A stretch of DNA of 32,000 nucleotides from Candidatus Lokiarchaeum ossiferum (GCA_025839675.1 CP104013.1:3510001-3542000), one strand, 5' to 3'. Positions 1-31,558 are shown, counted from the first letter of the stretch. Translations and numbers: made by a program. Notes: a model not told the origin generated them from the letters alone.

Positions 1-1050
1 AACCCTCCTTATCTGTATTTGGGATATATTGTAAAAACCGCAGAAACTCAAAAATATCTTCCCCTTTTCACCAATGAAAATAGAGGGTTACAAGATTTGT
101 ATCAAATTGCTCTTATAAATGACTTACGAAATGCTATAGATCAAATGATTTACATCATACCTTCGAATTTCATTTTTGGTAATTCGGTTTCCAATAAAAT
201 TAGGGATGAATTTTTACCTTATTATTCGATTAGTCGTTCTTTCATTTTCGAAAAACAAATCTTCAAACATACTGGGACCAATGTGATGATCAATTTTTTC
301 CAACGTAATTTAAATCCTCAGTATTCCACTGTTGAATTTCAAGGCATTAAAATTGGTAAGGAACAAAAAGAAAATAGATATCTCTTAGAACCACAATATC
401 ATTATAAAGCAGGGTCAGAGTTTGAAACATTTATCACTAATTTTAAGGTGAAAAATCCCGTAATTATGAAATATTACCTTAAACAGCATGACGTGGATGA
501 ACATCCAGGCAAAAATGAGATAAAAGTAATTGATGCAAACAATTTTGAAAAAAGTGAATATGTTCTTTTAACCATTTTCGTAGATTCAAAATTCGCAAAC
601 GAAATTCAATCCAATCTTCTCTGGATACGTACGGTAGACACTGGAACACTAGATGGTCGTGCAGGACTTTATTCTATTAAAGGTTCATTCAATGCATCTG
701 GAATTTTGGTGACCAAAGCGACATATCGAACCCATCCAATTCAAATTTTCTTTTCTCCCCCACTATCAAAAGCAGAACAAAGATTATTGCAAAACTATTT
801 CAACTTAACTCTTGAATATCTTAGATCGATTACCGATAGTGAATTTATGACGACTTACAAGTATTCCTCGGGGCCCTATACTCGAAAATATTTTGGACTC
901 TCTCAAGCCAAGAAAATAATTGCTACTTTCCCCTTGAATCATTTGGATGATTCTGAGAAGAATTATTTCTCCAAACTTATTTATAATAAGGACGTTACTC
1001 AACTTCTCGAATTTTTAAAAACCGTTAAAAATAAATGGAAATCGAGTTAA
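1..1050 (+). CDS. N6-adenine DNA methyltransferase, Eco57I/gamma-class-like; C-terminal 349 codons only, 5' end lies outside the window
   Basis: Frame 1 is open from nt 1. Its first four codons (aac cct cct tat) read NPPY, the catalytic motif IV of amino-methyltransferases. Downstream, DLYQIALIN...MIYIIPSNFIFGNSVSNKIRDEFL...IFEKQIFKHTGTNVMINFFQR follows the usual Eco57I-type layout. The last ~230 aa would be a target-recognition region. The track start at 19 is a TTG inside this open frame and is probably not the true start. Stop TAA 1048-1050. Confidence 0.7.
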   Translation, partial: NPPYLYLGYIVKTAETQKYLPLFTNENRGLQDLYQIALINDLRNAIDQMIYIIPSNFIFGNSVSNKIRDEFLPYYSISRSFIFEKQIFKHTGTNVMINFFQRNLNPQYSTVEFQGIKIGKEQKENRYLLEPQYHYKAGSEFETFITNFKVKNPVIMKYYLKQHDVDEHPGKNEIKVIDANNFEKSEYVLLTIFVDSKFANEIQSNLLWIRTVDTGTLDGRAGLYSIKGSFNASGILVTKATYRTHPIQIFFSPPLSKAEQRLLQNYFNLTLEYLRSITDSEFMTTYKYSSGPYTRKYFGLSQAKKIIATFPLNHLDDSEKNYFSKLIYNKDVTQLLEFLKTVKNKWKSS

Positions 1051-1796
1051 TGAGAACATGTATGTTGTCAGAAGAAGAAAAAGAACGGTATCAGCGCCAA
1101 ATCTTGATTATTGGGGATAAAAAACAAGAATCTCTCAAAAATAAGAAGATTCTACAAGTAGGGGCTGGCGGATTAGGAGGCCCCCTAATTCTCGCTCTGG
1201 TTGCAGCGGGAGTTGGTGAAATTATTCTTTTCGAAAATGATGTAGTATCTCTTTCCAATTTAGGAAGACAAATTTTGTATAAAACACAAGATTTAGGACT
1301 TTCAAAAGGTGTATTGGCTCAAAAAAGATTGCAAGAATTGAACCCTCATGTCAAAATCACTGTGATTGAAGAATGGCTATCCGCAAAATCTGCCCCAAAA
1401 TATTTAGATCCAGGAGATGTTGATTACTTAGTTGATGCTTCTGATAATTTTGAAACCAAATTCCTTGTTAATGATCTTGGGTTAAAATATAATATTCCTT
1501 TTACAATAGCGGGGATCCAAGGGTTTGAAGGGCAACTTATTTCTGTAGATCCCCATCGTACGGCATGTTATCGATGCTTGTTTGGTGATGTACCCAAAAA
1601 GAAAGATACTTCGCCTATTCCAGTGATGAGTTCCACTTGCGGTGTGGTAGGTTCCCTCCAAGCAAATGAAATATTGAAAGGACTTTTAAACCATGGAACT
1701 CGCATTTTGAATGCATTGTTGATGATTGGGCTAGAAACTGGAGATTTCACCAAAATTCCAATTAATCCAAATCCAAATTGCATCTGCCAAAAATAG
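1050..1796 (+). CDS. ThiF/MoeB/UbaA-family adenylyltransferase (short E1-like enzyme for a sulfur-carrier or SAMP/Urm1-type beta-grasp protein)
   Basis: Family motifs present: RYQRQILI, Rossmann loop VGAGGLGG, NLGRQILY, DASDNFETKF, CYRC Cys pair, STCGVVG, and a C-terminal C-I-C. ATG 1050-1052 overlaps the upstream stop as TAATG. Alternative in-frame ATGs lie at 1035 and 1062. Confidence 0.85.
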   Translation: MRTCMLSEEEKERYQRQILIIGDKKQESLKNKKILQVGAGGLGGPLILALVAAGVGEIILFENDVVSLSNLGRQILYKTQDLGLSKGVLAQKRLQELNPHVKITVIEEWLSAKSAPKYLDPGDVDYLVDASDNFETKFLVNDLGLKYNIPFTIAGIQGFEGQLISVDPHRTACYRCLFGDVPKKKDTSPIPVMSSTCGVVGSLQANEILKGLLNHGTRILNALLMIGLETGDFTKIPINPNPNCICQK

Positions 1797-20633: not shown

Positions 20634-21653
20634 TTAGTTATCAATGTCAATGATGAGTTTTTTATTAAAATCGGTCAGAATTTTTTCATGTTCTTCCAAC
20701 ATTTCTTTTTCTTCAAGCTGGATTACTTCATATTTGTAAAGTTTTGTTCCACAATAACGGCAGAAACTTTTCCCTTGGTCAATTAATTCTGAAACATTGA
20801 CTTTTTGGAAAGGTGTGGAACAATACTTACATATTTTAGTATTAGATACTTTTCCTCCTGCTGTAAAATCATCTTTTTCAACTGGATAATAACGAAGTTG
20901 TGTGAAATGGGCATAGAAGGCTATTATCCCACTAAAAGAATTTAATAATAAAATTAAATCTATAATATTTTCCCAAACAATTCTGATTTCTCCCATATAA
21001 TAACAGTAGGATATTAAAAATCCCATAATACTTCCAGAAATGCAACAAAAGAAAATCAAACGGATGTAATTTGTGAAATCTTGTGTAGTAGGTTTATATT
21101 TTTGATGATATCGATAGAAATTAATCACTCCTAAAAACGCGAAAATGAAGCTACCTCCTTCTAAACTTAAAAAAACTGCCATTTCAACTAAAAGAACTTG
21201 TAATATAATAAATATGAGTTTTTCTTTTCCTTTCGCTTCATTTCTATAATGAAATTGTATATTGATCCATTTCCTGCCCTCTTCTTCATAATGAGCAGAT
21301 ATTAATAATAATATTGGTATATCTGCAATTATTGCGGTAAATGTACTCCACGATGCACCAATATTGTTACTCCAAGCAGGTATAATTGAAATTTTTATAA
21401 AATTCATAATAACCCAGCCTAGTATCATTAAGATCTCATAATTCTTCATATTAAAAGAGACCGGTCGATAAACAGAGATCAATGTATATAAATAAAATCC
21501 CGAAAGAATTGTAAAAATGATAATAAACCATTCGGAAATTTTCCAATCATTACTCACAACTTCAGAATTTTGTGCAAACGGATAAGAAACAAGAGAAAAT
21601 ATGATCCAAAGAAAAATTATTGAAATTTTTTTTGCTAGATTTGGGTTTTTCAT
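20634..21653 (-). CDS. membrane protein with C-terminal zinc ribbon and conserved helical tail, paralog A
   Basis: About 8 TM helices, then CKYC-x17-CRYC, then LYKYEVIQLEEKEMLEEHEKILTDFNKKLIIDIDN. ATG 21653 (MKNPNL) is chosen by alignment with paralog B. Confidence 0.6.
   Translation of the reverse strand: MKNPNLAKKISIIFLWIIFSLVSYPFAQNSEVVSNDWKISEWFIIIFTILSGFYLYTLISVYRPVSFNMKNYEILMILGWVIMNFIKISIIPAWSNNIGASWSTFTAIIADIPILLLISAHYEEEGRKWINIQFHYRNEAKGKEKLIFIILQVLLVEMAVFLSLEGGSFIFAFLGVINFYRYHQKYKPTTQDFTNYIRLIFFCCISGSIMGFLISYCYYMGEIRIVWENIIDLILLLNSFSGIIAFYAHFTQLRYYPVEKDDFTAGGKVSNTKICKYCSTPFQKVNVSELIDQGKSFCRYCGTKLYKYEVIQLEEKEMLEEHEKILTDFNKKLIIDIDN
20637..20831 (-). repeat. conserved 3' segment of paralog A (pairs with 21718-21912)
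   Basis: This 195-nt segment encodes the zinc ribbon plus tail. It is clearly alignable to 21718-21912 at nucleotide level. About 56 of 65 codons encode the same residue, versus roughly half in the TM region. Confidence 0.7.
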
Positions 21654-21672
21654 TGTATACATCACCACCATA

Positions 21673-22755
21673 TTATAAAAAAAATTGAATTGAAGTTTCT
21701 GTGAACTTTTGGGTTAAATTATCAAGGTCAATTATGAGTTTTTTGTTAAAATCGGTTAGAATTTTTTCATGTTCTTCTAACATTTCTTTTTCTTCAAGTT
21801 GAACGACTTCATATTTGTAAAGTTTCGTTCCACAAAAACGGCAGGTACTTTTCCCTTGATCAATTAATTCTGTTATATTGACTTCTTGGAATGGGGTAGA
21901 GCAATAGTTACATTTCTTTGTATGAGAATTTTCTCCAGTGGCTATATATTCATATTTTTCAATAGGATAGTAATGAATCTGTGCAAAATGAGCATAAAAC
22001 GCTACTATTCCAGTTAATGATATTAGCAATAATATTATATCAATTAAAATTGACATTCCAGCGAATATCTCTCCTAAATAATAGATATAAACGACATAAA
22101 TTCCCATAGTGCTTCCAGAGATTCCACTAAAAAAAACTAATCGCACATATTTTGTTAAATCTTGTGTGGATGGATTGTGTTTTTGGTGATAAATACAAAA
22201 AATAATTGCTCCAATAAATGCAAAACTAAAACAACCAAATAGTAAAACAAATACCGTAAAAATTGCTAATTCTAACAAAATCATCTGAATTGTAATGAAA
22301 AATATTATTTCCTTTCCCTTTGCCTCATTTCTAGAAAAAATTTCCAATTTGATCCATTTATTAAACTTCTCCTCATAATCTAATGAAATTCTGATTAGTA
22401 TGAAGATATCTATGATAATAAAAATAATAGTAATCCCAAATATCCCAAAAGTGCTATTGAATGATAAGATAGTTCCATCAAGATCAAAAGACAACCCAAT
22501 TTTGATTAGATTTATGAAACTCCAGCCCAATATCATTATAATCTCATAATTCTTCATACTGAAAGAGATTGGCCTATAAATGGATATCCAAATATATAGA
22601 TAAAATCCGGAAAGAATTGGAAAAATCAGAAGCAACCATTTGATTACATCTCCATCAAGACTAGAAACACTTGGTACAAAATGATAGACAACCAGAGATA
22701 ACATAATCCAAAGGATGACCATTGTTTTTTTTTTTATGAGATTAGAGTTTTTCAT
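21673..22755 (-). CDS. membrane protein with C-terminal zinc ribbon and conserved helical tail, paralog B
   Basis: Same architecture as paralog A: CNYC-x17-CRFC, then LYKYEVVQLEEKEMLEEHEKILTDFNKKLIIDLDN plus a 14-aa extension. Shared TM-region motifs: ILSGFYLY, YRPxSFxMKNYEIxMILGW, RNEAKGKE, YHQK, AFYAHF. ATG 22755 (MKNSNL) is preferred over 22788. Confidence 0.6.
   Translation of the reverse strand: MKNSNLIKKKTMVILWIMLSLVVYHFVPSVSSLDGDVIKWLLLIFPILSGFYLYIWISIYRPISFSMKNYEIIMILGWSFINLIKIGLSFDLDGTILSFNSTFGIFGITIIFIIIDIFILIRISLDYEEKFNKWIKLEIFSRNEAKGKEIIFFITIQMILLELAIFTVFVLLFGCFSFAFIGAIIFCIYHQKHNPSTQDLTKYVRLVFFSGISGSTMGIYVVYIYYLGEIFAGMSILIDIILLLISLTGIVAFYAHFAQIHYYPIEKYEYIATGENSHTKKCNYCSTPFQEVNITELIDQGKSTCRFCGTKLYKYEVVQLEEKEMLEEHEKILTDFNKKLIIDLDNLTQKFTETSIQFFL
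21718..21912 (-). repeat. conserved 3' segment of paralog B (pairs with 20637-20831)
   Basis: See the partner entry at 20637-20831. The last 36 codons of the shared region differ at only 2 positions (I/V, I/L). Confidence 0.7.
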
Positions 22756-22784
22756 CGCGTTTATCACCAATATAAAAAAAGGGG

Positions 22785-23039
22785 TCACAGTTTCTTTTTT
22801 ACTGCTTCTAATAATTCGAAATATAATTTCTTATATAGGTTTCGTTCTTCTTGGCATCGATCTAACTGCTCACGAAGAGATTTGGCTTCTTCCATCTTTT
22901 CTTGCATTTTTTTGAGAGTGGTGTTCGACATCCCACTTCCAAATTTGGATTTCAAAGTAGCTTGAATTTCTCGATAGGGCACACCTAATTGAAGAAGTTG
23001 TCTTGCTAAGTTAACTTTTTCATCACTAGATTTACCCAA
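22785..23039 (-). CDS. small helix-turn-helix protein with C-terminal coiled coil (putative regulator)
   Basis: NLARQLLQLGVPYREIQATLKSKFGSGMSNTTLKKM resembles a 3-helix HTH. It is followed by a heptad-like segment, EEAKSLREQLDRCQEERNLYKKLYFELLEAV. It sits directly upstream of, and co-directional with, the paralog pair (30-nt gap). Confidence 0.5.
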   Translation of the reverse strand: MGKSSDEKVNLARQLLQLGVPYREIQATLKSKFGSGMSNTTLKKMQEKMEEAKSLREQLDRCQEERNLYKKLYFELLEAVKKKL

Positions 23040-23397: not shown

Positions 23398-24735
23398 TTA
23401 ATCCGCTTCCAGGTGCACAGTATCTTGTTGGGTTTGCATTTCTTTCAAAAATATCCTGCTATTTTTAGAATAGAGAGTGAAAGCAACAATTATTATGTTT
23501 AAAATTCCACACCAAACATACAATTCTCGAATCGAACCCAATGCATCAGCAATAGGGCCAGCAAGGATCATACCAATGGGAGAGGCTAAAGTAGCTAAAC
23601 TTACCACAACGGATATAACTCTTCCCATTTTTTCAGGAGGGACACTCCTCTGAAGAGTTGTTTGAAAAAGTGCATTTACAATTGGATTGAGTAGTAACAT
23701 GAAAAATGCTACTGTATACAGCAAAATGAAATTACTTTGCCCTATCACACCTAGCAATAACAATCCGATTCCAGTTGAAAATAATCCCACAGACATAATT
23801 GCTATAACATTCTTCCACCGTTTCTTGAGGGCAGAAATTAATCCTCCTAATAACATGCCTGCTTGTAAGAATGCCATGAAGTACCCTAAGTGCTGTTTCT
23901 CACCTAAATGTTCATATTTAATAAAATTCGGAAGAAGCACATCTAAGGGTTGCATAATGAAGTTTGCAAAAATTGCTAAAATCATGATACCTGTAAATCC
24001 CTTAATTTCTTTGATTGCATGGATCCCTTCTTTAAATTGCGTGAAAAAGGATGGTTCTGGAGGGTGTTCATAGGCATCTCCCATTTCTTGTTTTTGTTGC
24101 TCGATTTGTTTCTCTTTAAGCGATTTCGGAATTTTAATTTGGATTATCGTCAGTAGAGCAAGAAGAAATGTAATAATATCTATCCAAAGAATCAACTCTA
24201 CCGCAAGGAATACCATTAACCAAGCTCCAATGACGGGCCCAATTATTCGGATGATACTAGAAAGGAAGAAGTTGATACCATTAACACGAGATAATTTTGA
24301 GGGGGGGACCAATTGAGGAATCAATGAAAAAGTGACCGGTTCATGGAATGCTTGACAAACACTCCGCAATGAGTTCAAAGTGAGAATGTGCCATACTTTC
24401 ACCTCAGAGAAGTAGAAAATTAGGATGATACCTAAGGTTAAAAATGCTTGAGCTGAATCGGCAATTATAATAATCTTCTTTTTGTCATGTTTGTCGGCAA
24501 ACACACCTGCAATGGGGGATAAAATGACAATAGGAATTAGCCCTAAAAAGAATGCCAAGGAGAGAATTGTATTGTTTTCTCCCACCATATCCGTTAAATG
24601 CCAAATTAATACAAACATTATAATTGACGAGCCAAAAATTGAGGTCATTTGGCCAGATAAGAACAATAAATATGAACGATATTTTGCTTTTGATTCTAAT
24701 GAGTTGATCTGATCAAATTTGTTTTCTTCAACCAT
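23398..24735 (-). CDS. MFS transporter (MFS_3/EntS-Mef-like efflux type)
   Basis: About 12 TM helices. The N-terminal YLLFLSGQMTSIFGSSIIMFVLIWHL and GVFADKHDKKK loop are typical of this MFS subgroup. A central charged loop is present. Only 36 nt separate it from the RING-like gene, with no long T tract between. Confidence 0.8.
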   Translation of the reverse strand: MVEENKFDQINSLESKAKYRSYLLFLSGQMTSIFGSSIIMFVLIWHLTDMVGENNTILSLAFFLGLIPIVILSPIAGVFADKHDKKKIIIIADSAQAFLTLGIILIFYFSEVKVWHILTLNSLRSVCQAFHEPVTFSLIPQLVPPSKLSRVNGINFFLSSIIRIIGPVIGAWLMVFLAVELILWIDIITFLLALLTIIQIKIPKSLKEKQIEQQKQEMGDAYEHPPEPSFFTQFKEGIHAIKEIKGFTGIMILAIFANFIMQPLDVLLPNFIKYEHLGEKQHLGYFMAFLQAGMLLGGLISALKKRWKNVIAIMSVGLFSTGIGLLLLGVIGQSNFILLYTVAFFMLLLNPIVNALFQTTLQRSVPPEKMGRVISVVVSLATLASPIGMILAGPIADALGSIRELYVWCGILNIIIVAFTLYSKNSRIFLKEMQTQQDTVHLEAD

Positions 24736-24771: not shown

Positions 24772-25968
24772 TCAAAATTTTTTCTTCCAAAATTTGTAGG
24801 CCCGTAAGTAGTCTTTCACTTGGATTACTTTGGGATTACGGCGAAAACTGCTTGGAATCGTCCCATCACAACGAGAACATAGACTAGAAGTGCGTACCCA
24901 ATTTTTGAATTCATCCACGTGGGCGGGATAATTACAATTTGGACAGAGAACAATCCCCCGATGCCCGTCAGAAGTACTCGGAAGTTCAAAACAGAATATA
25001 CACTTGAAATCATCGGGGGTTAACACTCCAGTCTTTGGTTTCATACGTAAAAGTTCTTTTTTGCTTACTGAGGAAGAAGAGGTGGTCCTAGAAACTTTTG
25101 GTTTAGAAGACGATTTGGACTTTGAACGTTGTAGGCGTTCTTGTTCCCTTTGTTGTTTTCTCCGGGCTTTCTCTTCCTGCTCACGACGACGAGATTGTTT
25201 TCTCTCCAAATCTCTTTGTCTTCTTCTCTGGTCACGCTTCTGTTGTTCTTGGGCTTGGGCTTTTTTCTCTCTCTGGCGAGCTGCATCGGCAAAACGATCT
25301 GCGTCCTCTATTTGACGATCGATATTGTTCAACCTATTAGAAACACCTCGCATTGAAAATCCTGAGATTCTGGGCCTACGTTTGGTGATCGCAAAGAGAA
25401 AATAGATTACTAATACACACAAATTCAGAAGAATTATCAAATTGATTCCAGAAGTTTCAGGCGCAATATTTTGAAACACGTTTCCTCCCAGAACAAGATA
25501 AATAAAATCAAAAGAAATGAGAATCAAACTTGTAATGATCATAAATGGACGAGCATCAATTGATTTGGTTCCAATGAAAACGGTAAAATATTTTGAAATG
25601 CAAAACGACAATAAGATCATACTAAAAAATAAATAGGGGACAGCAAGAATTAGAGTCCAAATATTGAAGGATACATTGATAGGCAGTACCACATCCTGCA
25701 AAATTGTTGTAAAATCTCCCCAAATCCCATAAAATGTTCCTACTAATAAACCCCCAAATATAATTACAAAATTATTCAGCGAAGCACTATATTCGCGGAC
25801 TCGTTTTATCTTGGAAACATATTCGAATAAAATACAAAGCCATAATCCAAGTAATATATGTGAAAAGAAACCATTCAAAGAATCACTTGGTGCATTTCCG
25901 GTAAAAACTGCAATGAGTAAGCTAACTACAAGAACTACAAAATATAAAATGATCTTTGAAACTTTCAT
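24772..25968 (-). CDS. polytopic membrane protein with charged linker and C-terminal RING-like zinc finger (candidate membrane E3 ligase)
   Basis: The N-terminal ~200 aa hold ~6 TM helices. A ~75-aa R/K/E/Q segment follows (RQREKKAQAQEQQKRDQRRRQRDLERKQSRRREQEEKARRKQQREQERLQR), then a Ser/Lys-rich spacer. The finger reads CIFC-x15-CPNC-x4-H-x2-E-x3-W-x7-CSRC. Confidence 0.7.
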   Translation of the reverse strand: MKVSKIILYFVVLVVSLLIAVFTGNAPSDSLNGFFSHILLGLWLCILFEYVSKIKRVREYSASLNNFVIIFGGLLVGTFYGIWGDFTTILQDVVLPINVSFNIWTLILAVPYLFFSMILLSFCISKYFTVFIGTKSIDARPFMIITSLILISFDFIYLVLGGNVFQNIAPETSGINLIILLNLCVLVIYFLFAITKRRPRISGFSMRGVSNRLNNIDRQIEDADRFADAARQREKKAQAQEQQKRDQRRRQRDLERKQSRRREQEEKARRKQQREQERLQRSKSKSSSKPKVSRTTSSSSVSKKELLRMKPKTGVLTPDDFKCIFCFELPSTSDGHRGIVLCPNCNYPAHVDEFKNWVRTSSLCSRCDGTIPSSFRRNPKVIQVKDYLRAYKFWKKKF

Positions 25969-26034
25969 TGTTTTTACCTAAGTTCCCAAAATTAAAAATC
26001 CCTAAAAAAAGGATGGAAAAAAAATTATTTATTT

Positions 26035-26871
26035 TTATTCGTCATATTCCAAAAACAAATCTTGACCATCTACAATAGGATTAGCAAAATCCAACAGTTC
26101 GGGAAGGACATTTGGAGAGATATTTCCTTTGATTTTAAACGGAACTTCATACCACTTGGCAGTCTTTAAATTAGCACGGAAAATATTAAATCCATATGAA
26201 CTTCCATCAATTTGGTAAGGATCGATAACTAATGCTACCGATTTTTTCCATAATTTCTGATAACGAGCTTGAGTCCCCATATCCTCAGAGCTTAAAAATA
26301 GTCCATAGGATGGATGGGAGTGATACCATCCGCAAATAAAGAGGCCTTTTTTTTGCAAGTCGGTGTATGCTTTAACATAGTTGTTATAATCTTTAATTTC
26401 TGCATGAATGGCATTTCCATGCCCCATTGGGTAGACATCTTCAATATAAAGTACTTCATTGGGCTCATCCCACTTTCCCGCCAATAAACCAATAACTTCT
26501 ACCCATTTAGATCTTTCTATTTTGTCATTTGCATATTTTTTTGCATGAGTTGCAATTTTTAAAATGGCTTTTGCTGAAATTAGAGTTTTTTCTTCTTCTT
26601 TTACTGGTGCCATTTGGGAGCCAATTAACTTTTCACTATTCGCTTGGGCATTATTTTTCTTCACTATTTTTTTAAAACTTGTACTCAGAGTTTCATCGGA
26701 AAGCATTTCTTGTTCGCTAAATTTTTCCTCATTACTCTCTTCATTTTTGAGTTCCTGATAGATTTCTTGAAGAACTTCTTTTTTTATCTCGTTTTTTAAT
26801 TGCTTTAGCATTTCTGCTTTTAATTTTACTTTTAATTCCTTGATTTCAGGAGAATCGTTTTCATTTTCCAT
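26035..26871 (-). CDS. JAMM/MPN+ metalloisopeptidase (Rpn11/CSN5-like)
   Basis: Catalytic Glu in WVEVIGLLAG and the complete JAMM motif GWYHSHPSYGLFLSSEDM (HxHx7Sx2D). The catalytic core is preceded by a ~100-aa K/E-rich extension. Confidence 0.9.
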   Translation of the reverse strand: MENENDSPEIKELKVKLKAEMLKQLKNEIKKEVLQEIYQELKNEESNEEKFSEQEMLSDETLSTSFKKIVKKNNAQANSEKLIGSQMAPVKEEEKTLISAKAILKIATHAKKYANDKIERSKWVEVIGLLAGKWDEPNEVLYIEDVYPMGHGNAIHAEIKDYNNYVKAYTDLQKKGLFICGWYHSHPSYGLFLSSEDMGTQARYQKLWKKSVALVIDPYQIDGSSYGFNIFRANLKTAKWYEVPFKIKGNISPNVLPELLDFANPIVDGQDLFLEYDE

Positions 26872-26884
26872 AATAATTACCTGA

Positions 26885-27412
26885 TCACCATTTTTTGTTG
26901 GCGTATTTCTTGACTAAATTTTTGACTTTTTTATCAAATTTTTTCGGCTCTTTCATCATTTCCAGCGCTGCTTTTTTATTAAATACGTCTGTTGGATTAA
27001 TATACGATCCAGCAGTGTTCAACATTGCTGTAATTGCTTGAATCACTGTAACTGCCGTTTTTGAAGGACTCCAACCTCCCTTCTTTCCTATGTAGTTTGG
27101 ATCCACTAACGCTAAGCAAATATTTCGTTGTCCTACATATTCGGTAGGTTTGGGCCAAAAATTCGGATGCCATATTGGTGTGTGTAAACGAACGAATGGT
27201 GGTTGGCTTGGATACTCTGCTGGGAATTTCATCTCAAGCCTAAATAATCCCTTTGCATAGGCTGTTCCTTTTGGTCCTACTAACAGTATTTTCAAGTGAT
27301 CAATACTTTTTTTACTGGAATCAAAAGCTTTCAATTGTTTAATTGTCCCATCTTTGTACAATTTCTTTAATCTAGCGTAATCTTGTGTAATTCTTTTTTG
27401 TCTGAGACTCAT
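26885..27412 (-). CDS. UBC-fold ubiquitin-conjugating enzyme (E2)
   Basis: GPKGTAYAKGLFRLEMKFPAEYPSQPPFVRLHTPIWHPNF...RNICLALV...WSPSKT. The HPN triad is at residues 82-84. The active-site Cys99 codon is at 27116-27118, with WSP downstream. Confidence 0.9.
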   Translation of the reverse strand: MSLRQKRITQDYARLKKLYKDGTIKQLKAFDSSKKSIDHLKILLVGPKGTAYAKGLFRLEMKFPAEYPSQPPFVRLHTPIWHPNFWPKPTEYVGQRNICLALVDPNYIGKKGGWSPSKTAVTVIQAITAMLNTAGSYINPTDVFNKKAALEMMKEPKKFDKKVKNLVKKYANKKW

Positions 27413-27503
27413 ATTTCTAAACTCTTTTTATTTATTGCTAATACTATGTTTTTATAGCTATTTGTATTTTTCAATTGTATGTTTAAAAAAAAATGAAGTT
27501 GGT

Positions 27504-28742
27504 CTATTTAAATAACCGTATAGTGACATATATTTCCCCTTCTTGAAACCCAGAAAGAGTAATTAAAGACAGTGACCGTATTTTGTTCTCCTTAGCATTT
27601 TTTTCTAAATCCAACTCTCTTAGTGAATCAAAATCTGGTACCGTCAAAATAGGTTCCATCTCTTCATCTAGATGATATCCCTTCATCTTCAAGGCATTTA
27701 TGATACATTCTAGGTTTTGGTCCTTTCGCAGATAGAATTCTTCACGCAACACATTTTTGCCACATTGAAAGCATTCGGGGTTTCGCGGCTTTTCTAAATG
27801 ATAAAATCGTTCAGTCATACCATTATAAATAATATATTCTTTGCTTGGAATTCCTAATGCCGTATTTCCCTTAAGATAGTTGAGAATTTTCAATATTTCT
27901 TGAGATTGAATGCTCGCAATTACTGCATTAATCGTAATAATACCTGGTTCATGGTGATCTATGATATTTATAACTTCTTTTACAGTAAAATCTGGTTTAA
28001 ATCCATATTTATCGACTAACTTATTCGCAAAGGATTTTAGGAATTTAATATCTTCATAATTTTGTGGATCTGGATCCTTTGCAAATTTCTCTTCATAGGC
28101 CATCGTTGCTTTGAAAAGACAATGAACTCGTTTACGGGGTATTCCAACAACAGTACAGGCGGCCATTTCATCACTTTCAGTCGACGATGTTGGATGGCAT
28201 TCATAACATGCGTTTTCAAAAGGAAAGATCGTATAAATATGACCATGATACCCATTAACTCCACCGTCTACCAAAGGTTTATTAAATCGAATTGCTTGTA
28301 GGTTTAAATTAACCCTCGCATTCATGGAATCTAATCCGCCTACAATGACATCTGCTTTCTTGAATAGAATAGGGGGCAAATTTTCAAGGGATGTATGGTA
28401 TCCTTTCAATGTAATATTAGGATTAATTTTTTGTAACATTTCCGCTGCGGCGATAGCTTTAGGCTTCGCTATATCTGCATTAATGAATAACATTTGGCGA
28501 TTTAAATTTGAATGCTCAATTACATCCAAATCAACTAGATCAATATGACCAACTCCAAGCATAGTAAGATTTTTTGCTATTTCACAACCGAGACCGCCTA
28601 CACCTGCAATCAAAACTCGAGCATTCTTCAATATTCGCTGATCCCAACCTTTTAACCGGAATTGTCTGTCATAAAGCTGGCGCTCTGATTCAGTAAGATC
28701 TTTAGAAAAGAAATTTGATTCTTCCAAAACATAATCCCTCAA
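27504..28742 (-). CDS. eukaryote-type ubiquitin-activating enzyme (E1, Uba-like) with catalytic-Cys segment and C-terminal ubiquitin-fold-like domain
   Basis: LYDRQFRL, IAGVGGLGCEIAKNL, DLDVIEHSNLNRQMLF, GGLDSMNAR, zinc pairs CYEC and CFQC, and an inserted segment with AACTVVGIP that resembles the PxCT catalytic-Cys motif of eukaryotic E1s. The ~70-aa C-terminal domain ends EGEIYVTIRLFK. No in-frame ATG exists near the 5' end, so the start must be TTG (28742 or 28727). Confidence 0.9.
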   Translation of the reverse strand: MRDYVLEESNFFSKDLTESERQLYDRQFRLKGWDQRILKNARVLIAGVGGLGCEIAKNLTMLGVGHIDLVDLDVIEHSNLNRQMLFINADIAKPKAIAAAEMLQKINPNITLKGYHTSLENLPPILFKKADVIVGGLDSMNARVNLNLQAIRFNKPLVDGGVNGYHGHIYTIFPFENACYECHPTSSTESDEMAACTVVGIPRKRVHCLFKATMAYEEKFAKDPDPQNYEDIKFLKSFANKLVDKYGFKPDFTVKEVINIIDHHEPGIITINAVIASIQSQEILKILNYLKGNTALGIPSKEYIIYNGMTERFYHLEKPRNPECFQCGKNVLREEFYLRKDQNLECIINALKMKGYHLDEEMEPILTVPDFDSLRELDLEKNAKENKIRSLSLITLSGFQEGEIYVTIRLFK

Positions 28743-28750
28743 TAATTTTT

Positions 28751-28776
28751 AAAAAAAAATAGTAATTGAAAAAAAA
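28751..28776 (-). terminator. T8 and T9 tracts in the 46-nt Ubl-E1 spacer (partial terminator/attenuator candidate)
   Basis: The minus strand reads ...ccttttttttcaattactatttttttttaaaaattaTTG. This follows the hairpin at 28792-28816. Confidence 0.35.
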
Positions 28777-28788
28777 GGAAACTATGTT

Positions 28789-29145
28789 TTATATTCCCGC
28801 AGTACTTGCGGGAATAAGTAAAACTGTATCTCCGTCCTTGACGGGATAATCCATTATGAATTTTCCTTCATCCATGGTAACTCCACCATGGGACAAGTGA
28901 AAATCGGATGGATTAACTCCAAATATATTTCCAACAGTTGTTTTAATATCTCCAACTTGATTTCCAGTGTTCACGAGTAATTTCTGCTTTTTCTCACCAG
29001 GACCAATTGTAGACATGAAGAAAACTGAAATATCTTTACCTCCTGGTGCTTGTGCCGCATTTGGTGTTTTTGAGGCAATAGCAGGGGTTTTATCTTCGAT
29101 ATCTTCATCCAAATCTTCATCTAAGTCATCAAAATCTTCTGACAT
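28789..29145 (-). CDS. ubiquitin-like beta-grasp protein with acidic N-terminal extension
   Basis: First gene of the E1/E2/JAMM cassette. The C-terminal ~80 aa (DISVFFMSTIG...KKQKLLVNTGNQVGDIKTTVGNIFGVNPSDFHLSHGGVTMDEGKFIMDYPVKDGDTVLLIPASTAGI) have the length and hydrophobic pattern of a beta-grasp Ubl and a Gly next to the C-terminus. The N-terminal ~40 aa are D/E-rich. The fold assignment is inferred, not demonstrated. Confidence 0.65.
   Translation of the reverse strand: MSEDFDDLDEDLDEDIEDKTPAIASKTPNAAQAPGGKDISVFFMSTIGPGEKKQKLLVNTGNQVGDIKTTVGNIFGVNPSDFHLSHGGVTMDEGKFIMDYPVKDGDTVLLIPASTAGI
28792..28816 (-). promoter_or_regulatory. perfect 10-bp stem, 5-nt loop hairpin over the last codons of the Ubl gene
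   Basis: tattcccgca-gtact-tgcgggaata. The GC-rich core stands out in an AT-rich context. It spans the codons for PASTAGI and ends one nt before the stop. Confidence 0.45.
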
Positions 29146-29324: not shown

Positions 29325-30560
29325 GTGATCAAAGTGGTAAAGCAAAAAACTCCCGATTCTACTATTCGCGTGAAAACACCTGTTATTTCATCGAAAACTC
29401 CCTCGGATCTTGATTCAAATCAACTAAAATCTGAACGCAAAAAACTTGAAGCGGAACGTCAAAAACTAGAAGAAGAACGAAATCAATGGCAAAAAATACT
29501 TAACAAAATGCAACAATATTCCGATTCCCTTGATGAACTTGAACAAAAACGAAAAGACAAGATTGATGATATCAAAATTCTTGAGCGTGATCGGAAAAAT
29601 ATTGTTGAAGACATCGATCGTTTGAATAAATCATTCGATGAAGGAAAGAAACGACTTGACAATGTAATTTATGATCTTGAAGACAAAAATGGAGTTCTTA
29701 GACGTAAAGAACTAGAGTTGGAAGATCGAGAGAAAGATCTTGAAGATCGCCATCATCAGATTAAAAAAACCCGCATAAAAGTTCAGGATAAAATCAATGA
29801 CGCAAAAGAACAACTTGAAGATTTTGACTCGAAAAAAGATCGTCTTGATCGGGATGTCCAAAATCTTGAGCGTAAGAAACAAAATTTAATTGACGATCTC
29901 CAGAACGAAAAAGAACGTCTCAATAAAACAAATAGGGATCGAAAAGCACTAGAAAAAGAACGAAATCAATTGCAAAATGAAGTAGATCGCTTGAATCGTG
30001 AAAAAGATAGGATAAGGGATGAACGTAAGCGATTAAATCAAGAGAAAGATGATTTAAACAAAGTCCGTGATCGGATTCAAGATGAAAAAGATGCTTTAAG
30101 AAAGAAACGGAAGCAAGAAGAAGATCGTATGAACAAAATCCAACGAAATGCTGCTGATGATCTCAAAAAAACACAACAAAAACGAAAACAAGCAGAAAAT
30201 GAATGGAATAATTATCGTAAAAAAATTCCTGAAGCCGAACGGAAACTGCGTTCAATGGAGAAAAAGGTTGATGACGCTAAAGGAGATTGGAATCGTATCA
30301 AACGTGATAATGATCAATTGAAAAATGAAAATAAACACCTTCAAAATGATAATCGACGAATCAATGATGAAAAGAAACGTCTAAGAAAAGAACGAAATGA
30401 CATTGAAAATGAAAAGTCTAAAATCAAGCGATTGGAGAAAGACCTCGAGGGAAGGATGCGCAAAGTTCAAAATTTACAAAAAGATTTAGAGAATCAAATT
30501 CAAAAGGCGAAAATAAAATCTAAAACCCCTGGAATTCGGTCTAAAACTCCAGGTTGGTAA
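29325..30560 (+). CDS. long heptad coiled-coil protein with KTP-motif termini
   Basis: About 360 aa of nearly uninterrupted K/E/R/D/N/Q heptads (e.g. EVDRLNR-EKDRIRD-ERKRLNQ-EKDDLNK-VRDRIQD-EKDALRK). They are flanked by QKTP..VKTP..SKTP at the N-terminus and SKTPGIRSKTPGW at the C-terminus. The start is uncertain: GTG 29325 or GTG 29334, with no nearby ATG. Confidence 0.6.
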   Translation: MIKVVKQKTPDSTIRVKTPVISSKTPSDLDSNQLKSERKKLEAERQKLEEERNQWQKILNKMQQYSDSLDELEQKRKDKIDDIKILERDRKNIVEDIDRLNKSFDEGKKRLDNVIYDLEDKNGVLRRKELELEDREKDLEDRHHQIKKTRIKVQDKINDAKEQLEDFDSKKDRLDRDVQNLERKKQNLIDDLQNEKERLNKTNRDRKALEKERNQLQNEVDRLNREKDRIRDERKRLNQEKDDLNKVRDRIQDEKDALRKKRKQEEDRMNKIQRNAADDLKKTQQKRKQAENEWNNYRKKIPEAERKLRSMEKKVDDAKGDWNRIKRDNDQLKNENKHLQNDNRRINDEKKRLRKERNDIENEKSKIKRLEKDLEGRMRKVQNLQKDLENQIQKAKIKSKTPGIRSKTPGW

Positions 30561-30589: not shown

Positions 30590-31558
30590 TTAATCCAAAA
30601 AGAGATGGAACAGATCCTTAATAACATCCAAATGGGCTAAAAAGTCCCAATTCTTGAATAAAAAAGGTTTAATTTGCTCTTTAAACATTTGAGCCCAATC
30701 ATGGTCACCCAATGCTTTTGAAATAATCGTGATATAATGTTTTAGGGATGTATTGAACAAATCAATCATAATTTCTATGTCTACATCTTCAACCTTCATC
30801 TCAAATAATTTATTTCGATTTGCTTCCACAAAGATGATCTTTTCTTTTTTCATATCTACACGAGGGATAAAGATATGCAATATTTCAAAAGTTTTTTCGA
30901 ATCCTTCCTTTCTAGACCATGTTTCAAGAATTAACGGCAACTTCTTCAAATTTAGTAAAATATATTTTAGACGCATCCCACTAAATTTATTTTCTACTAT
31001 TCTAATGAGTTTAATAAAGAGATTTTGATAAATTCCCAGTAGATCAAACATCTCACCTAAATTTGTTGATTGATAGGCTCGCTTCCATTGAAAATGGATC
31101 TTTTCGATTCTGGTATGAAATCCATCGAATTGAGTTGTTTCCTTATCCCAGAAGTCCCAAAAAATACCTTTCACTTTGTATTCATTGATAAATACCCGAT
31201 CTAAGACTTTTAATTGGGAAAGAACTAAATGATAATGACTCGGTTGGTCCGTAGCGGCCACATATAACAAGTTTGCCTCAGAATTAATGTAATAAACCCA
31301 ACTTAAATTTCCCATGTTCACCGATTCAATACCTTGGTTTCCCATTTTCATCTCACTGAATTGATTTAGGGCTGATAGCAATCCGGAAATCATTATTCCG
31401 TCTAATTCGCCATCTTGGGAAAAATCATGGTAGAAAATGTTCAATGATGAGTTTTTCTCAATGATCCAGAAATGTTTGATTTGAAATGATTTGATCACTT
31501 TAACCTCATTTCTCAACTTTTTATCTGATTTTTGATGAAACGCCTCATCATATTCCAT
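30590..31558 (-). CDS. hypothetical protein; the N-terminal ~130 aa have a longin/roadblock-like alpha-beta pattern
   Basis: Apparent strand-strand-helix-strand-strand-strand-helix pattern: HFWIIEK / LNIFYHDF / DGIMISGLLSALNQFSEM / IESVNMGN / LSWVYYINSE / LLYVAATD / HLVLSQLKVLDRVFINEY. The C-terminal ~190 aa look helical. This is pattern recognition only. Confidence 0.4.
   Translation of the reverse strand: MEYDEAFHQKSDKKLRNEVKVIKSFQIKHFWIIEKNSSLNIFYHDFSQDGELDGIMISGLLSALNQFSEMKMGNQGIESVNMGNLSWVYYINSEANLLYVAATDQPSHYHLVLSQLKVLDRVFINEYKVKGIFWDFWDKETTQFDGFHTRIEKIHFQWKRAYQSTNLGEMFDLLGIYQNLFIKLIRIVENKFSGMRLKYILLNLKKLPLILETWSRKEGFEKTFEILHIFIPRVDMKKEKIIFVEANRNKLFEMKVEDVDIEIMIDLFNTSLKHYITIISKALGDHDWAQMFKEQIKPFLFKNWDFLAHLDVIKDLFHLFLD

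Follow-up and report, generated by a model that had tools for sequence, protein, structure and literature searches.

Does a string of five genes on the chromosome of Candidatus Lokiarchaeum ossiferum encode a complete cycle of ubiquitin-like protein conjugation and deconjugation, and in which respects does it depart from the archaeal systems already described? The string lies in a window of 32,000 nucleotides (nt; GCA_025839675.1, CP104013.1:3510001-3542000), the whole stretch of DNA that was analysed, and positions are counted from its first letter. A first-pass annotation had proposed that five consecutive, co-directional minus-strand genes encode a ubiquitin-like modifier (Ubl), an activating enzyme (E1), a conjugating enzyme (E2), a JAMM protease and a membrane protein ending in a RING-like finger. 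The open reading frame (ORF) listing gives exactly the coordinates and the gaps of 46, 91, 13 and 66 nt described there (Table 1), and each of the five roles, originally assigned from diagnostic motifs, was recovered through profile or fold evidence. The cassette very probably constitutes a chromosomal operon for conjugation and deconjugation of a ubiquitin-like protein, with predicted activities; its catalytic motifs are present in the window, each conserved in 72-82 orthologues.

The cassette sits in a published genome, and all five of its domains are already labelled in UniProt. The proteins are identical in sequence to NEF87_002996 (Ubl) through NEF87_002992 (fifth protein) of Candidatus Lokiarchaeum ossiferum B-35, except that the GenBank E1 model is 5 amino acids (aa) shorter. 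GenBank labels all five products 'hypothetical protein'; the corresponding UniRef names are Ubiquitin-like domain-containing protein (modifier, UYP46711.1), THIF-type NAD/FAD binding fold domain-containing protein (E1), UBC core domain-containing protein (E2), MPN domain-containing protein (JAMM) and RING-type domain-containing protein (fifth protein). In one Loki metagenome-assembled genome (MAG), the deposited name of the orthologous E1 is 'putative E1-like ubiquitin activating protein' and that of the orthologous E2 is 'putative E2-like ubiquitin conjugating protein'. As a class, archaeal eukaryote-like ubiquitylation operons are already known, and the locus is not the discovery of a new system. 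Caldiarchaeum was found to have operons for ubiquitin, E1, E2, a small RING protein and Rpn11, and the E1/E2/RING cascade and Rpn11 processing were reconstituted in vitro (PMC5654768, PMC6043591); according to both papers, clusters of this kind, E3-like RING proteins among them, also occur in Asgard archaea. [quoted passage not shown] The precedent that had been cited for the locus in Caldiarchaeum and Asgard archaea is thus supported by published in vitro reconstitutions.

Related loci were collected by an E1 scan of one genome per GTDB species, which gave 142 relatives; 80 loci were retrieved, and 85 loci (GTDB representatives and other assemblies) were analysed. The E1 contains the Rossmann, NLNRQ, zinc-pair and catalytic-Cys features first attributed to it, invariant in a 22-sequence alignment, and its three motifs are present in 82 of 85 orthologues. 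It matches Pfam ThiF at 1.2e-58 (198 bits) and, among solved structures, scores highest with UBA1 (135 bits), SAE2 (129 bits) and UBA3 (125 bits), with lower scores for MoeB (104 bits) and ThiF (83 bits). The UBA3 alignment spans E1 residues 36-330, running through the catalytic-Cys region, in which the A-A-C196-T...H207-C208 stretch presumably corresponds to the C-T-x4-P-x4-H-C catalytic motif of UBA2/UBA3. At E <= 1e-20 there are 488 E1 homologues, and those that are named come nearly all from Asgard MAGs (~60% identity). A C-terminal ubiquitin-fold domain has been reported for a Lokiarchaeum E1, with 84% HHpred probability (PMC5654768, supplement). A second ThiF-family gene lies elsewhere in the window (1035-1796, + strand, 253 aa), overlapping the end of an unannotated 343-aa ORF (19-1050); it is of the MoeB/UbaA type without a catalytic-Cys insert, and is likely to be the sulfur-carrier or SAMP-type E1 of the same genome.

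The E2 matches Pfam UQ_con at 4.6e-26 (91.5 bits, cut-off 27), and its best 60 PDB matches are all named ubiquitin-, NEDD8- or SUMO-conjugating E2s, in keeping with the HPN motif and active-site Cys noticed at the outset. Its HPN-to-Cys spacing of 14 residues, ~7 above that of UBE2D2, is kept in all 79 orthologues (HPN-x14-C). Alignment with UBE2D2 and UBE2G2 places a 7-residue insert between HPN and Cys and a second insert after the Cys, both at least 95% conserved, and the insert sequence pattern 'W.KP.EY.GQRN' is at least 95% conserved. Identity of the E2 among Asgard lineages is 69-92%, a conservation above that of E1. The JAMM protein matches the eukaryotic-type JAB/MPN family Pfam JAB (1.1e-14) with a higher score than Prok-JAB, and its best PDB match is Caldiarchaeum CsRpn11 (6fjv, 58 bits), followed by Rpn11, CSN5, AMSH and BRCC36. 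The JAMM motif proposed for it is present and kept in 77/77 orthologues, although in the literal form 'HSHPx7Sx2D' first given, 'HSHPx7' is one residue too long, the canonical form being HxHx7Sx2D; the N-terminal extension is found in all orthologues. From these matches, the protein is a predicted Rpn11-like MPN+ metalloprotease.

The modifier scores 23.1 bits against Pfam ubiquitin, slightly under the 25.4-bit cut-off. A profile built from 23 sequences (the modifier and orthologues) matches ubiquitin monomers in the PDB (~23 bits, E about 6e-4), with the 'putative ubiquitin' entries 8hm1-3 (76-77 residues, E 2e-6 to 4e-6) as the best single-domain matches. Because the family profile matches these ubiquitin chains, the modifier is classed as a ubiquitin-family beta-grasp protein, as had been supposed from its sequence. 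Its penultimate residue is Ala, giving an Ala-Gly end with a C-terminal Gly available for activation, and the C-terminus ...(I/M)P(A/S)STAG is found in 80/80 orthologues adjoining E1. The description as a single-Gly pro-form holds for the window, with just one extra residue; 49 of the 80 orthologues end exactly at the Gly, and the others have tails of 1-3 residues (I, M, YF, FHE, others). The acidic N-terminal tail is conserved among Asgard orthologues. Many Hod-, Thor- and Odin-labelled loci have two extra genes 2-3 kb upstream of the cassette. The first encodes another conjugatable paralogue of the modifier, in which the acidic/K-T-P tail is longer and the end is ...AS(T/I)AG; the product of the second is membrane-anchored and has at its C-terminus a ubiquitin-like domain ending ...ALIPSRKEKN, with no Gly. 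Neither gene is found in the window; examples are L025:3299-3715 (+) and L025:3758-4567 (-), with comparable genes in L020, L021, L031 and others.

The sampylation and sulfur-carrier systems (SAMP/UbaA/JAMM1, MoeB/ThiF) resemble the cassette in having a beta-grasp modifier with a C-terminal Gly, a ThiF-fold E1 and removal by JAMM, but they have no E2, no RING protein and no catalytic-Cys insert in E1. This reading was rejected, with NCBIfam scores far below cut-off (SAMP-E1, 101 bits against 450; desampylase, 31 against 130) and an E2 and RING-like gene present. A horizontally acquired bacterial E1/E2/JAB module, from the cyclic-oligonucleotide-based anti-phage signalling system (CBASS Cap2/Cap3) or a Bil-like anti-phage system, would find some support in the match of the E1 Rossmann region to the PADLOC CBASS 'E1-E2' models (1.9e-17). 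However, this match covers residues 32-190 alone and amounts to 61 bits, compared with 198 for ThiF and 125-135 for eukaryotic E1s, and the E2 and JAB reach just 16 and 18 bits against PADLOC defence models; E1 and E2 are moreover separate genes with no CD-NTase or effector nearby, and one fixed order is kept among Asgard lineages, with housekeeping-gene neighbours. The probability of such an origin is close to nil, and the PADLOC scores effectively refute it. As E1, E2 and JAMM have eukaryotic or archaeal proteins as their best solved relatives and score low with the defence and SAMP models, the cassette is assigned by sequence comparison to the eukaryote-like archaeal type, neither bacterial defence nor sampylation. 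The first-pass annotation had named failure to recover the folds, or a phylogenetic placement inside a bacterial E1/E2/JAB clade, as outcomes that would speak against it; the profile scores favour the eukaryote-like archaeal reading.

The gene order points in the same direction. Ubl-E1-E2-JAB-TM/RING (TM, transmembrane) is the order in about 76 of the 85 related loci, with short or overlapping gaps, in Loki-, Hel-, Thor-, Hod-, Odin-, Hermod- and Sif-type Asgard genomes; in Harpocratesius, Loki, Hod, Thor and Hel assemblies, Ubl, E1, E2 and JAB are followed by a protein of ~400 aa. The E2 is present in all 85 loci, the Ubl in 82, the JAB in 78 and the fifth protein in 76, the shortfalls lying mostly at contig ends. 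Judged by this conserved order, the cassette is a vertically conserved Asgard module and not a bacterial CBASS/Bil defence system. The single-Gly end of the modifier and its acidic tail, the E2 loop, the JAMM extension and the membrane-embedded E3, which had been regarded as peculiarities of the locus, turn out to be traits of essentially all Asgard orthologues. The window itself is AT-rich all along (GC 0.29-0.39), with no compositional break at the cassette.

The fifth protein combines a membrane domain with a RING-like domain. The AlphaFold2 (AF2) model of its first 228 residues (predicted local distance difference test, pLDDT, 87.1) has six TM helices and one short hairpin, and Lys and Arg in the membrane part are confined to the N-terminus, loops 2 and 4, and the segment after TM6. 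By the positive-inside rule, this distribution predicts that both termini, and hence the RING-like domain, are cytoplasmic. The membrane domain found no match in the PDB by Foldseek (best E 1.4, TM-score <=0.31), and its hidden Markov model (HMM), run against 1.84 billion representative proteins, gave 52 matches, none clearly of another family (31 with the RING-like motif; 12 without it, mostly short fragments). A Hrd1-, Doa10- or Pex-like or other known fold was rejected on these searches, which returned the protein's own family alone, and a weak Pfam PFF1_TM match (23 bits, cut-off 32) was judged compositional. The linker that follows (R 22, S 15, Q 14 and K 14 of 117 residues) is poorly conserved in the alignment and differs among lineages.

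The C-terminal domain has the ligand pattern C323-x2-C326-x15-C342-x2-C345-x4-H350-x13-C364-x2-C367 (CIFC 323-326, CPNC 342-345, CSRC 364-367), found as C-x2-C-x13-16-C-x2-C-x4-H-x13-C-x2-C in 120/120 homologues listed and in 72/72 orthologues from cassette loci. The AF2 model of the last 98 aa (pLDDT 88.8) has as its best 50 Foldseek PDB matches only RING or U-box domains (E 6e-3 to 0.17, probability up to 1.0), the modest E-values being in line with the domain's size of some 60 residues. Matches include EL5 RING-H2, Rad18, RNF168, RNF4, Ring1b/Bmi1, HRD1, LubX and E4B, several of the RING matches having been solved with an E2, as well as zinc domains of IFT-A WDR19 and GATOR2/SEAC. The domain is RING-like (RING/U-box superfamily) rather than a canonical RING, because just seven ligands are conserved and the sixth position is Glu or Ala. 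The finger first proposed for this protein is therefore upheld as a fold, but lacks the eighth ligand and a Pfam RING match in the window.

Several observations weigh against the interpretation of the cassette as a ligase-driven conjugation system. The modifier ends in Ala-Gly instead of Gly-Gly; the last 83 residues of E1, where an E2-recruiting ubiquitin-fold domain is expected, gave no PDB profile match (best E 0.11, unrelated); the conserved zinc ligands of the fifth protein number seven, not eight; this protein gave no Pfam RING match, in searches that recovered ThiF, UQ_con and JAB and left ubiquitin below cut-off; and the best profile neighbours of its RING-like domain include zinc domains of IFT144/IFT121 and GATOR2-type proteins. 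Such zinc domains are known as structural, not as catalytic, RINGs. By sequence profile, the RING-like domain (24853-25017) has its closest solved relative in the zinc domain at the C-terminus of IFT144/WDR19 (E 0.06), and sub-threshold Pfam matches recur among relatives (zf-RING_16 in 37/45, Prok-RING_1 in 34/45, zf-RING_2 in 18/45, and Zf_2nd_IFT121). These scores, all below significance, hint that the domain may be linked to its RING-like counterparts in coat-related complexes of eukaryotes.

The fifth protein might accordingly be no ligase, its RING-like domain being a structural zinc scaffold (of the IFT-A, GATOR2 or HOPS type) that anchors E2, JAMM or substrate at the membrane, with the E2 modifying targets directly, perhaps reading a motif as Ubc9 does. 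In addition to the missing eighth ligand, the WDR19 profile match, the recurrent zf-RING_16 and Zf_2nd_IFT121 matches and the WDR19 and GATOR2 chains among the fold matches, the conserved enlarged loops around the E2 active site and a defined K-T-P motif on candidate targets (see below) would suit this arrangement. Yet catalytic RING or U-box domains make up most of the fold matches, and several of them were solved with E2; the Ile after the first Cys (Ile324) and the Trp of the central helix (Trp357), which we take to be the classical E2-contact positions of RINGs, are invariant in the family; and the linkage of the gene to that of the E2 holds across the Asgard archaea. A scaffold role is accordingly considered unlikely, and a membrane-anchored ligase is the preferred reading of the fifth protein.

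The acceptor need not be a protein. Attachment of the modifier to a membrane lipid or other non-protein acceptor, as in the Atg8 system, would fit the ...AG-I terminus, with its single Gly and tails of 0-3 residues, and a polytopic ligase with a membrane domain lacking relatives; in yeast, Atg8 has a Phe-Gly-Arg end, from which one residue is trimmed. Against it, the E2 is a canonical UBC protein with HPN, unlike Atg3/Atg10, the E1 resembles UBA1/2/3 and not Atg7 (just 46 bits with the Atg7 NCBIfam model), and the modifier profile matches ubiquitin, not Atg8, making lipid attachment very improbable.

With protein conjugation as the preferred reading, the cycle would run as follows. The JAMM protease would trim the single C-terminal Ile to expose Gly117, by analogy with Caldiarchaeum Rpn11, most orthologues being encoded in mature form. 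The E1 would adenylate Gly117 and take over the modifier as a thioester on Cys196, a step for which the motifs are in place and the chemistry is presumed, and the modifier would then pass to Cys99 of the UBC-fold E2. The RING-like domain, on its long basic linker, would dock the E2~modifier on the cytoplasmic side of the cell membrane and promote transfer to lysines of nearby proteins; fold and topology are here predictions, and a ligase activity is suggested by the fold and the strict operon linkage. The same JAMM protease would presumably reverse the modification.

A candidate partner for this cycle is encoded upstream of the cassette, by a divergently transcribed gene for a coiled-coil protein. 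A 'KTP-motif neighbour' had been named in the first-pass annotation, and the motif is found at both ends of the protein; 68 of the 85 loci have a homologue upstream, on the opposite strand, and 66 of these 68 have K[TS]P, mostly at the termini and frequently as 7-residue tandem repeats. I-[KR]-[EST]-K-T-P is the consensus for the coiled-coil protein, and [VPI]-x-S-K-T-P that for the modifier. ORFs with at least two K-T-P motifs in the related loci comprise 74 modifiers, 57 coiled-coil proteins and 5 others, and the motif is almost never present in the E1, E2, JAMM or ligase. Further examples of loci sharing the motif are L012:4445-5473 (-) and L040:1934-3115 (-). The hydrophobic-x-x-K-T-P sequence common to the modifier tail and the ends of the coiled-coil protein appears to be undescribed; a literature search that left most subscription journals outside its scope found no account of the membrane RING-like protein, the Ala-Gly terminus or the K-T-P motif, which is weak evidence.

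As judged from gene linkage and motif content, the coiled-coil protein is probably an associated component, a substrate or an adaptor, and the K-T-P motif could accept the modifier, serve in docking or be phosphorylated. More speculatively, the modifier tail and the coiled-coil protein are candidate acceptors or docking partners. A bolder and rather doubtful proposal is that the cassette is a second pan-Asgard Ubl pathway, apart from the Gly-Gly ubiquitin/ESCRT-linked cascade, in which the membrane ligase and the enlarged-loop E2 put the Ala-Gly modifier on the lysine of a hydrophobic-[KR]-x-K-T-P motif. If this were true, the motif in the modifier tail would permit chain building, like the tail of SUMO-2/3, the coiled-coil protein would carry tandem motif copies at both ends, and the whole would amount to a SUMO-like logic, directed by a motif, at the cell membrane of an archaeon.

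Compared with the Caldiarchaeum subterraneum operon (Nunoura 2011, Hennell James 2017, Fuchs 2018), the Lokiarchaeum cassette comprises the same five functional classes in a chromosomal cluster, with eukaryote-like rather than ThiF/MoeB-like enzymes, a modifier with a C-terminal extension for removal by JAMM, and a JAMM protein closest to CsRpn11 among solved structures. By contrast, the Caldiarchaeum RING protein is small and soluble, while the Lokiarchaeum ligase, a polytopic membrane protein of 398 aa, has a RING-like domain with seven ligands; in CsUb, 9 residues follow the Gly-Gly, while the Lokiarchaeum modifier has 1 after its Ala-Gly and bears an acidic/K-T-P N-terminal tail; the Caldiarchaeum JAMM gene is adjacent and divergent, while its counterpart here lies within the operon and is co-directional; and the 7-residue HPN-to-Cys insert of the E2 is a further difference. 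With the Helarchaeial ESCRT-linked cascade, the cassette shares an Asgard origin, the E1/E2/RING logic and a pro-form modifier whose C-terminal tail is short, but it differs in the Ala-Gly modifier, the membrane-embedded ligase in place of a small RING E3 and the lack of ESCRT genes adjoining the cassette in the loci examined by gene content. The cassette is present in Loki- and Thor-type genomes, which are said to lack UEV-Vps23 (bioRxiv 10.1101/2023.07.25.550441).

In its combination of a polytopic membrane domain and a cytoplasmic RING-type domain predicted to recruit a UBC E2, the fifth protein is like Hrd1, whose RING (6f98) is among both the Foldseek and the profile matches of the RING-like domain. 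Doa10/MARCH6 and Pex2/10/12 are further eukaryotic membrane-embedded RING ligases of this architecture. The Lokiarchaeum membrane domain matches no solved structure, those of the eukaryotic ligases included, and has no relatives beyond its own family, and the likeness is one of design, not of demonstrated ancestry.

The co-transcribed major facilitator superfamily (MFS) transporter that had been listed among the cassette's features does not belong to the module. Its adjacency looks lineage-specific, because a counterpart beside the cassette is found in none of the 85 loci; in L005 the downstream genes encode oxidoreductase subunits, and L007 has an MFS gene encoded on the other strand. Also rejected was a 322-aa ORF (30590-31558), with no Pfam match and no homologue in any of the 85 related loci. 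The tandem paralogues at 20634-22788 combine a membrane domain with a zinc finger, a design that resembles the fifth protein, to which they show no sequence similarity; they belong to no Pfam family and have no counterpart in the related loci.

Some related loci have unusual contexts. A complete Asgard cassette (E1 ~60% identical) is found on contigs filed as bacterial MAGs, L080 (DATKTW010000176.1) and L082 (DATKTP010000227.1), whose labels, Candidatus Nanopelagicaceae and Candidatus Deferrimicrobium, most likely reflect mis-binning. In L092 (SHMV01000048.1; 352-2394, 7178-9361), from a Loki MAG, a 727-aa helix-turn-helix-like protein is encoded between E2 and JAB, and a 680-aa protein with a weak zf-RING_2 match is encoded upstream, adjoining a proteasome subunit gene. 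The Promethearchaeia MAG ABR05 has two cassette copies on different contigs (L055 and L070), either a real duplication or a mixed bin.

Table 1. Genes of the cassette, their predicted features and neighbouring genes in the window
Feature	Position (nt)	Strand	Size or residues	Basis or remark
Ubl modifier gene	28789-29145	-	118 aa	
Modifier, acidic N-terminal tail		-	1-18	sequence
Modifier, two x-K-T-P motifs		-	K19, K26	sequence
Modifier, beta-grasp core		-	about 40-112	ubiquitin-family profile
Modifier, C-terminus ...LLIPASTAG-I		-	Gly117 plus one Ile (118)	sequence
E1 gene	27504-28742	-	412 aa	
E1, Rossmann/ATP site GVGGLG		-	47-52	motif
E1, NLNRQ		-	79-83	motif
E1, zinc pairs CYEC (C179/C182) and CFQC (C324/C327)		-	179-182, 324-327	motif
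E1, catalytic-Cys insert AACT (A-A-C196-T...H207-C208)		-	194-197	motif
E1, C-terminal domain, fold unproven		-	83 aa	sequence
E2 gene	26885-27412	-	175 aa	
E2, HPN and catalytic Cys		-	82-84, Cys99	motif
JAMM gene	26035-26871	-	278 aa	
JAMM, charged N-terminal extension		-	1-93	sequence
JAMM, Glu125 and H184-x-H186-x7-S194-x2-D197 (HSHPSYGLFLSSED)		-	125, 184-197	motif
Fifth gene, TM/RING-like protein	24772-25968	-	398 aa	
Fifth protein, membrane domain (six predicted TM helices, short cytoplasmic beta-hairpin)	25369..25968	-	1-200	AF2
Fifth protein, basic Arg/Lys/Gln/Ser-rich linker	25018..25368	-	201-317	composition
Fifth protein, RING/U-box-fold domain and C-terminal helix	24772..25017	-	318-398	AF2, motif
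Coiled-coil protein, divergently transcribed	29325..30560	+	411 aa	K-T-P at K8, K17, K24; K400, K407
MFS transporter	23398-24735	-		36 nt downstream of cassette, no obvious T-run between
Tandem paralogues, polytopic membrane proteins	20634-21671, 21673-22788	-		57% identical; CxxC...CxxC zinc ribbon and shared acidic helix at end

Ubiquitin-type tagging is a hallmark of eukaryotes, to which Asgard archaea are the most closely related prokaryotes known. Universal features of the Asgard cassette are the modifier's Ala-Gly end, the loop of the E2 and the membrane-anchored RING-like protein, with seven ligands and an orphan membrane domain; the MFS transporter is an incidental one, and the K-T-P-ended coiled-coil protein provides a concrete candidate partner or target. 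Of greater interest than the cassette itself are two details, namely the fusion of an orphan membrane domain to a RING-like domain with seven ligands, and the K-T-P motif common to the modifier and the coiled-coil protein. Lokiarchaeum ossiferum is one of few cultured Asgard archaea, and the predictions made for its cassette are therefore testable in real cells, beyond recombinant metagenome proteins.

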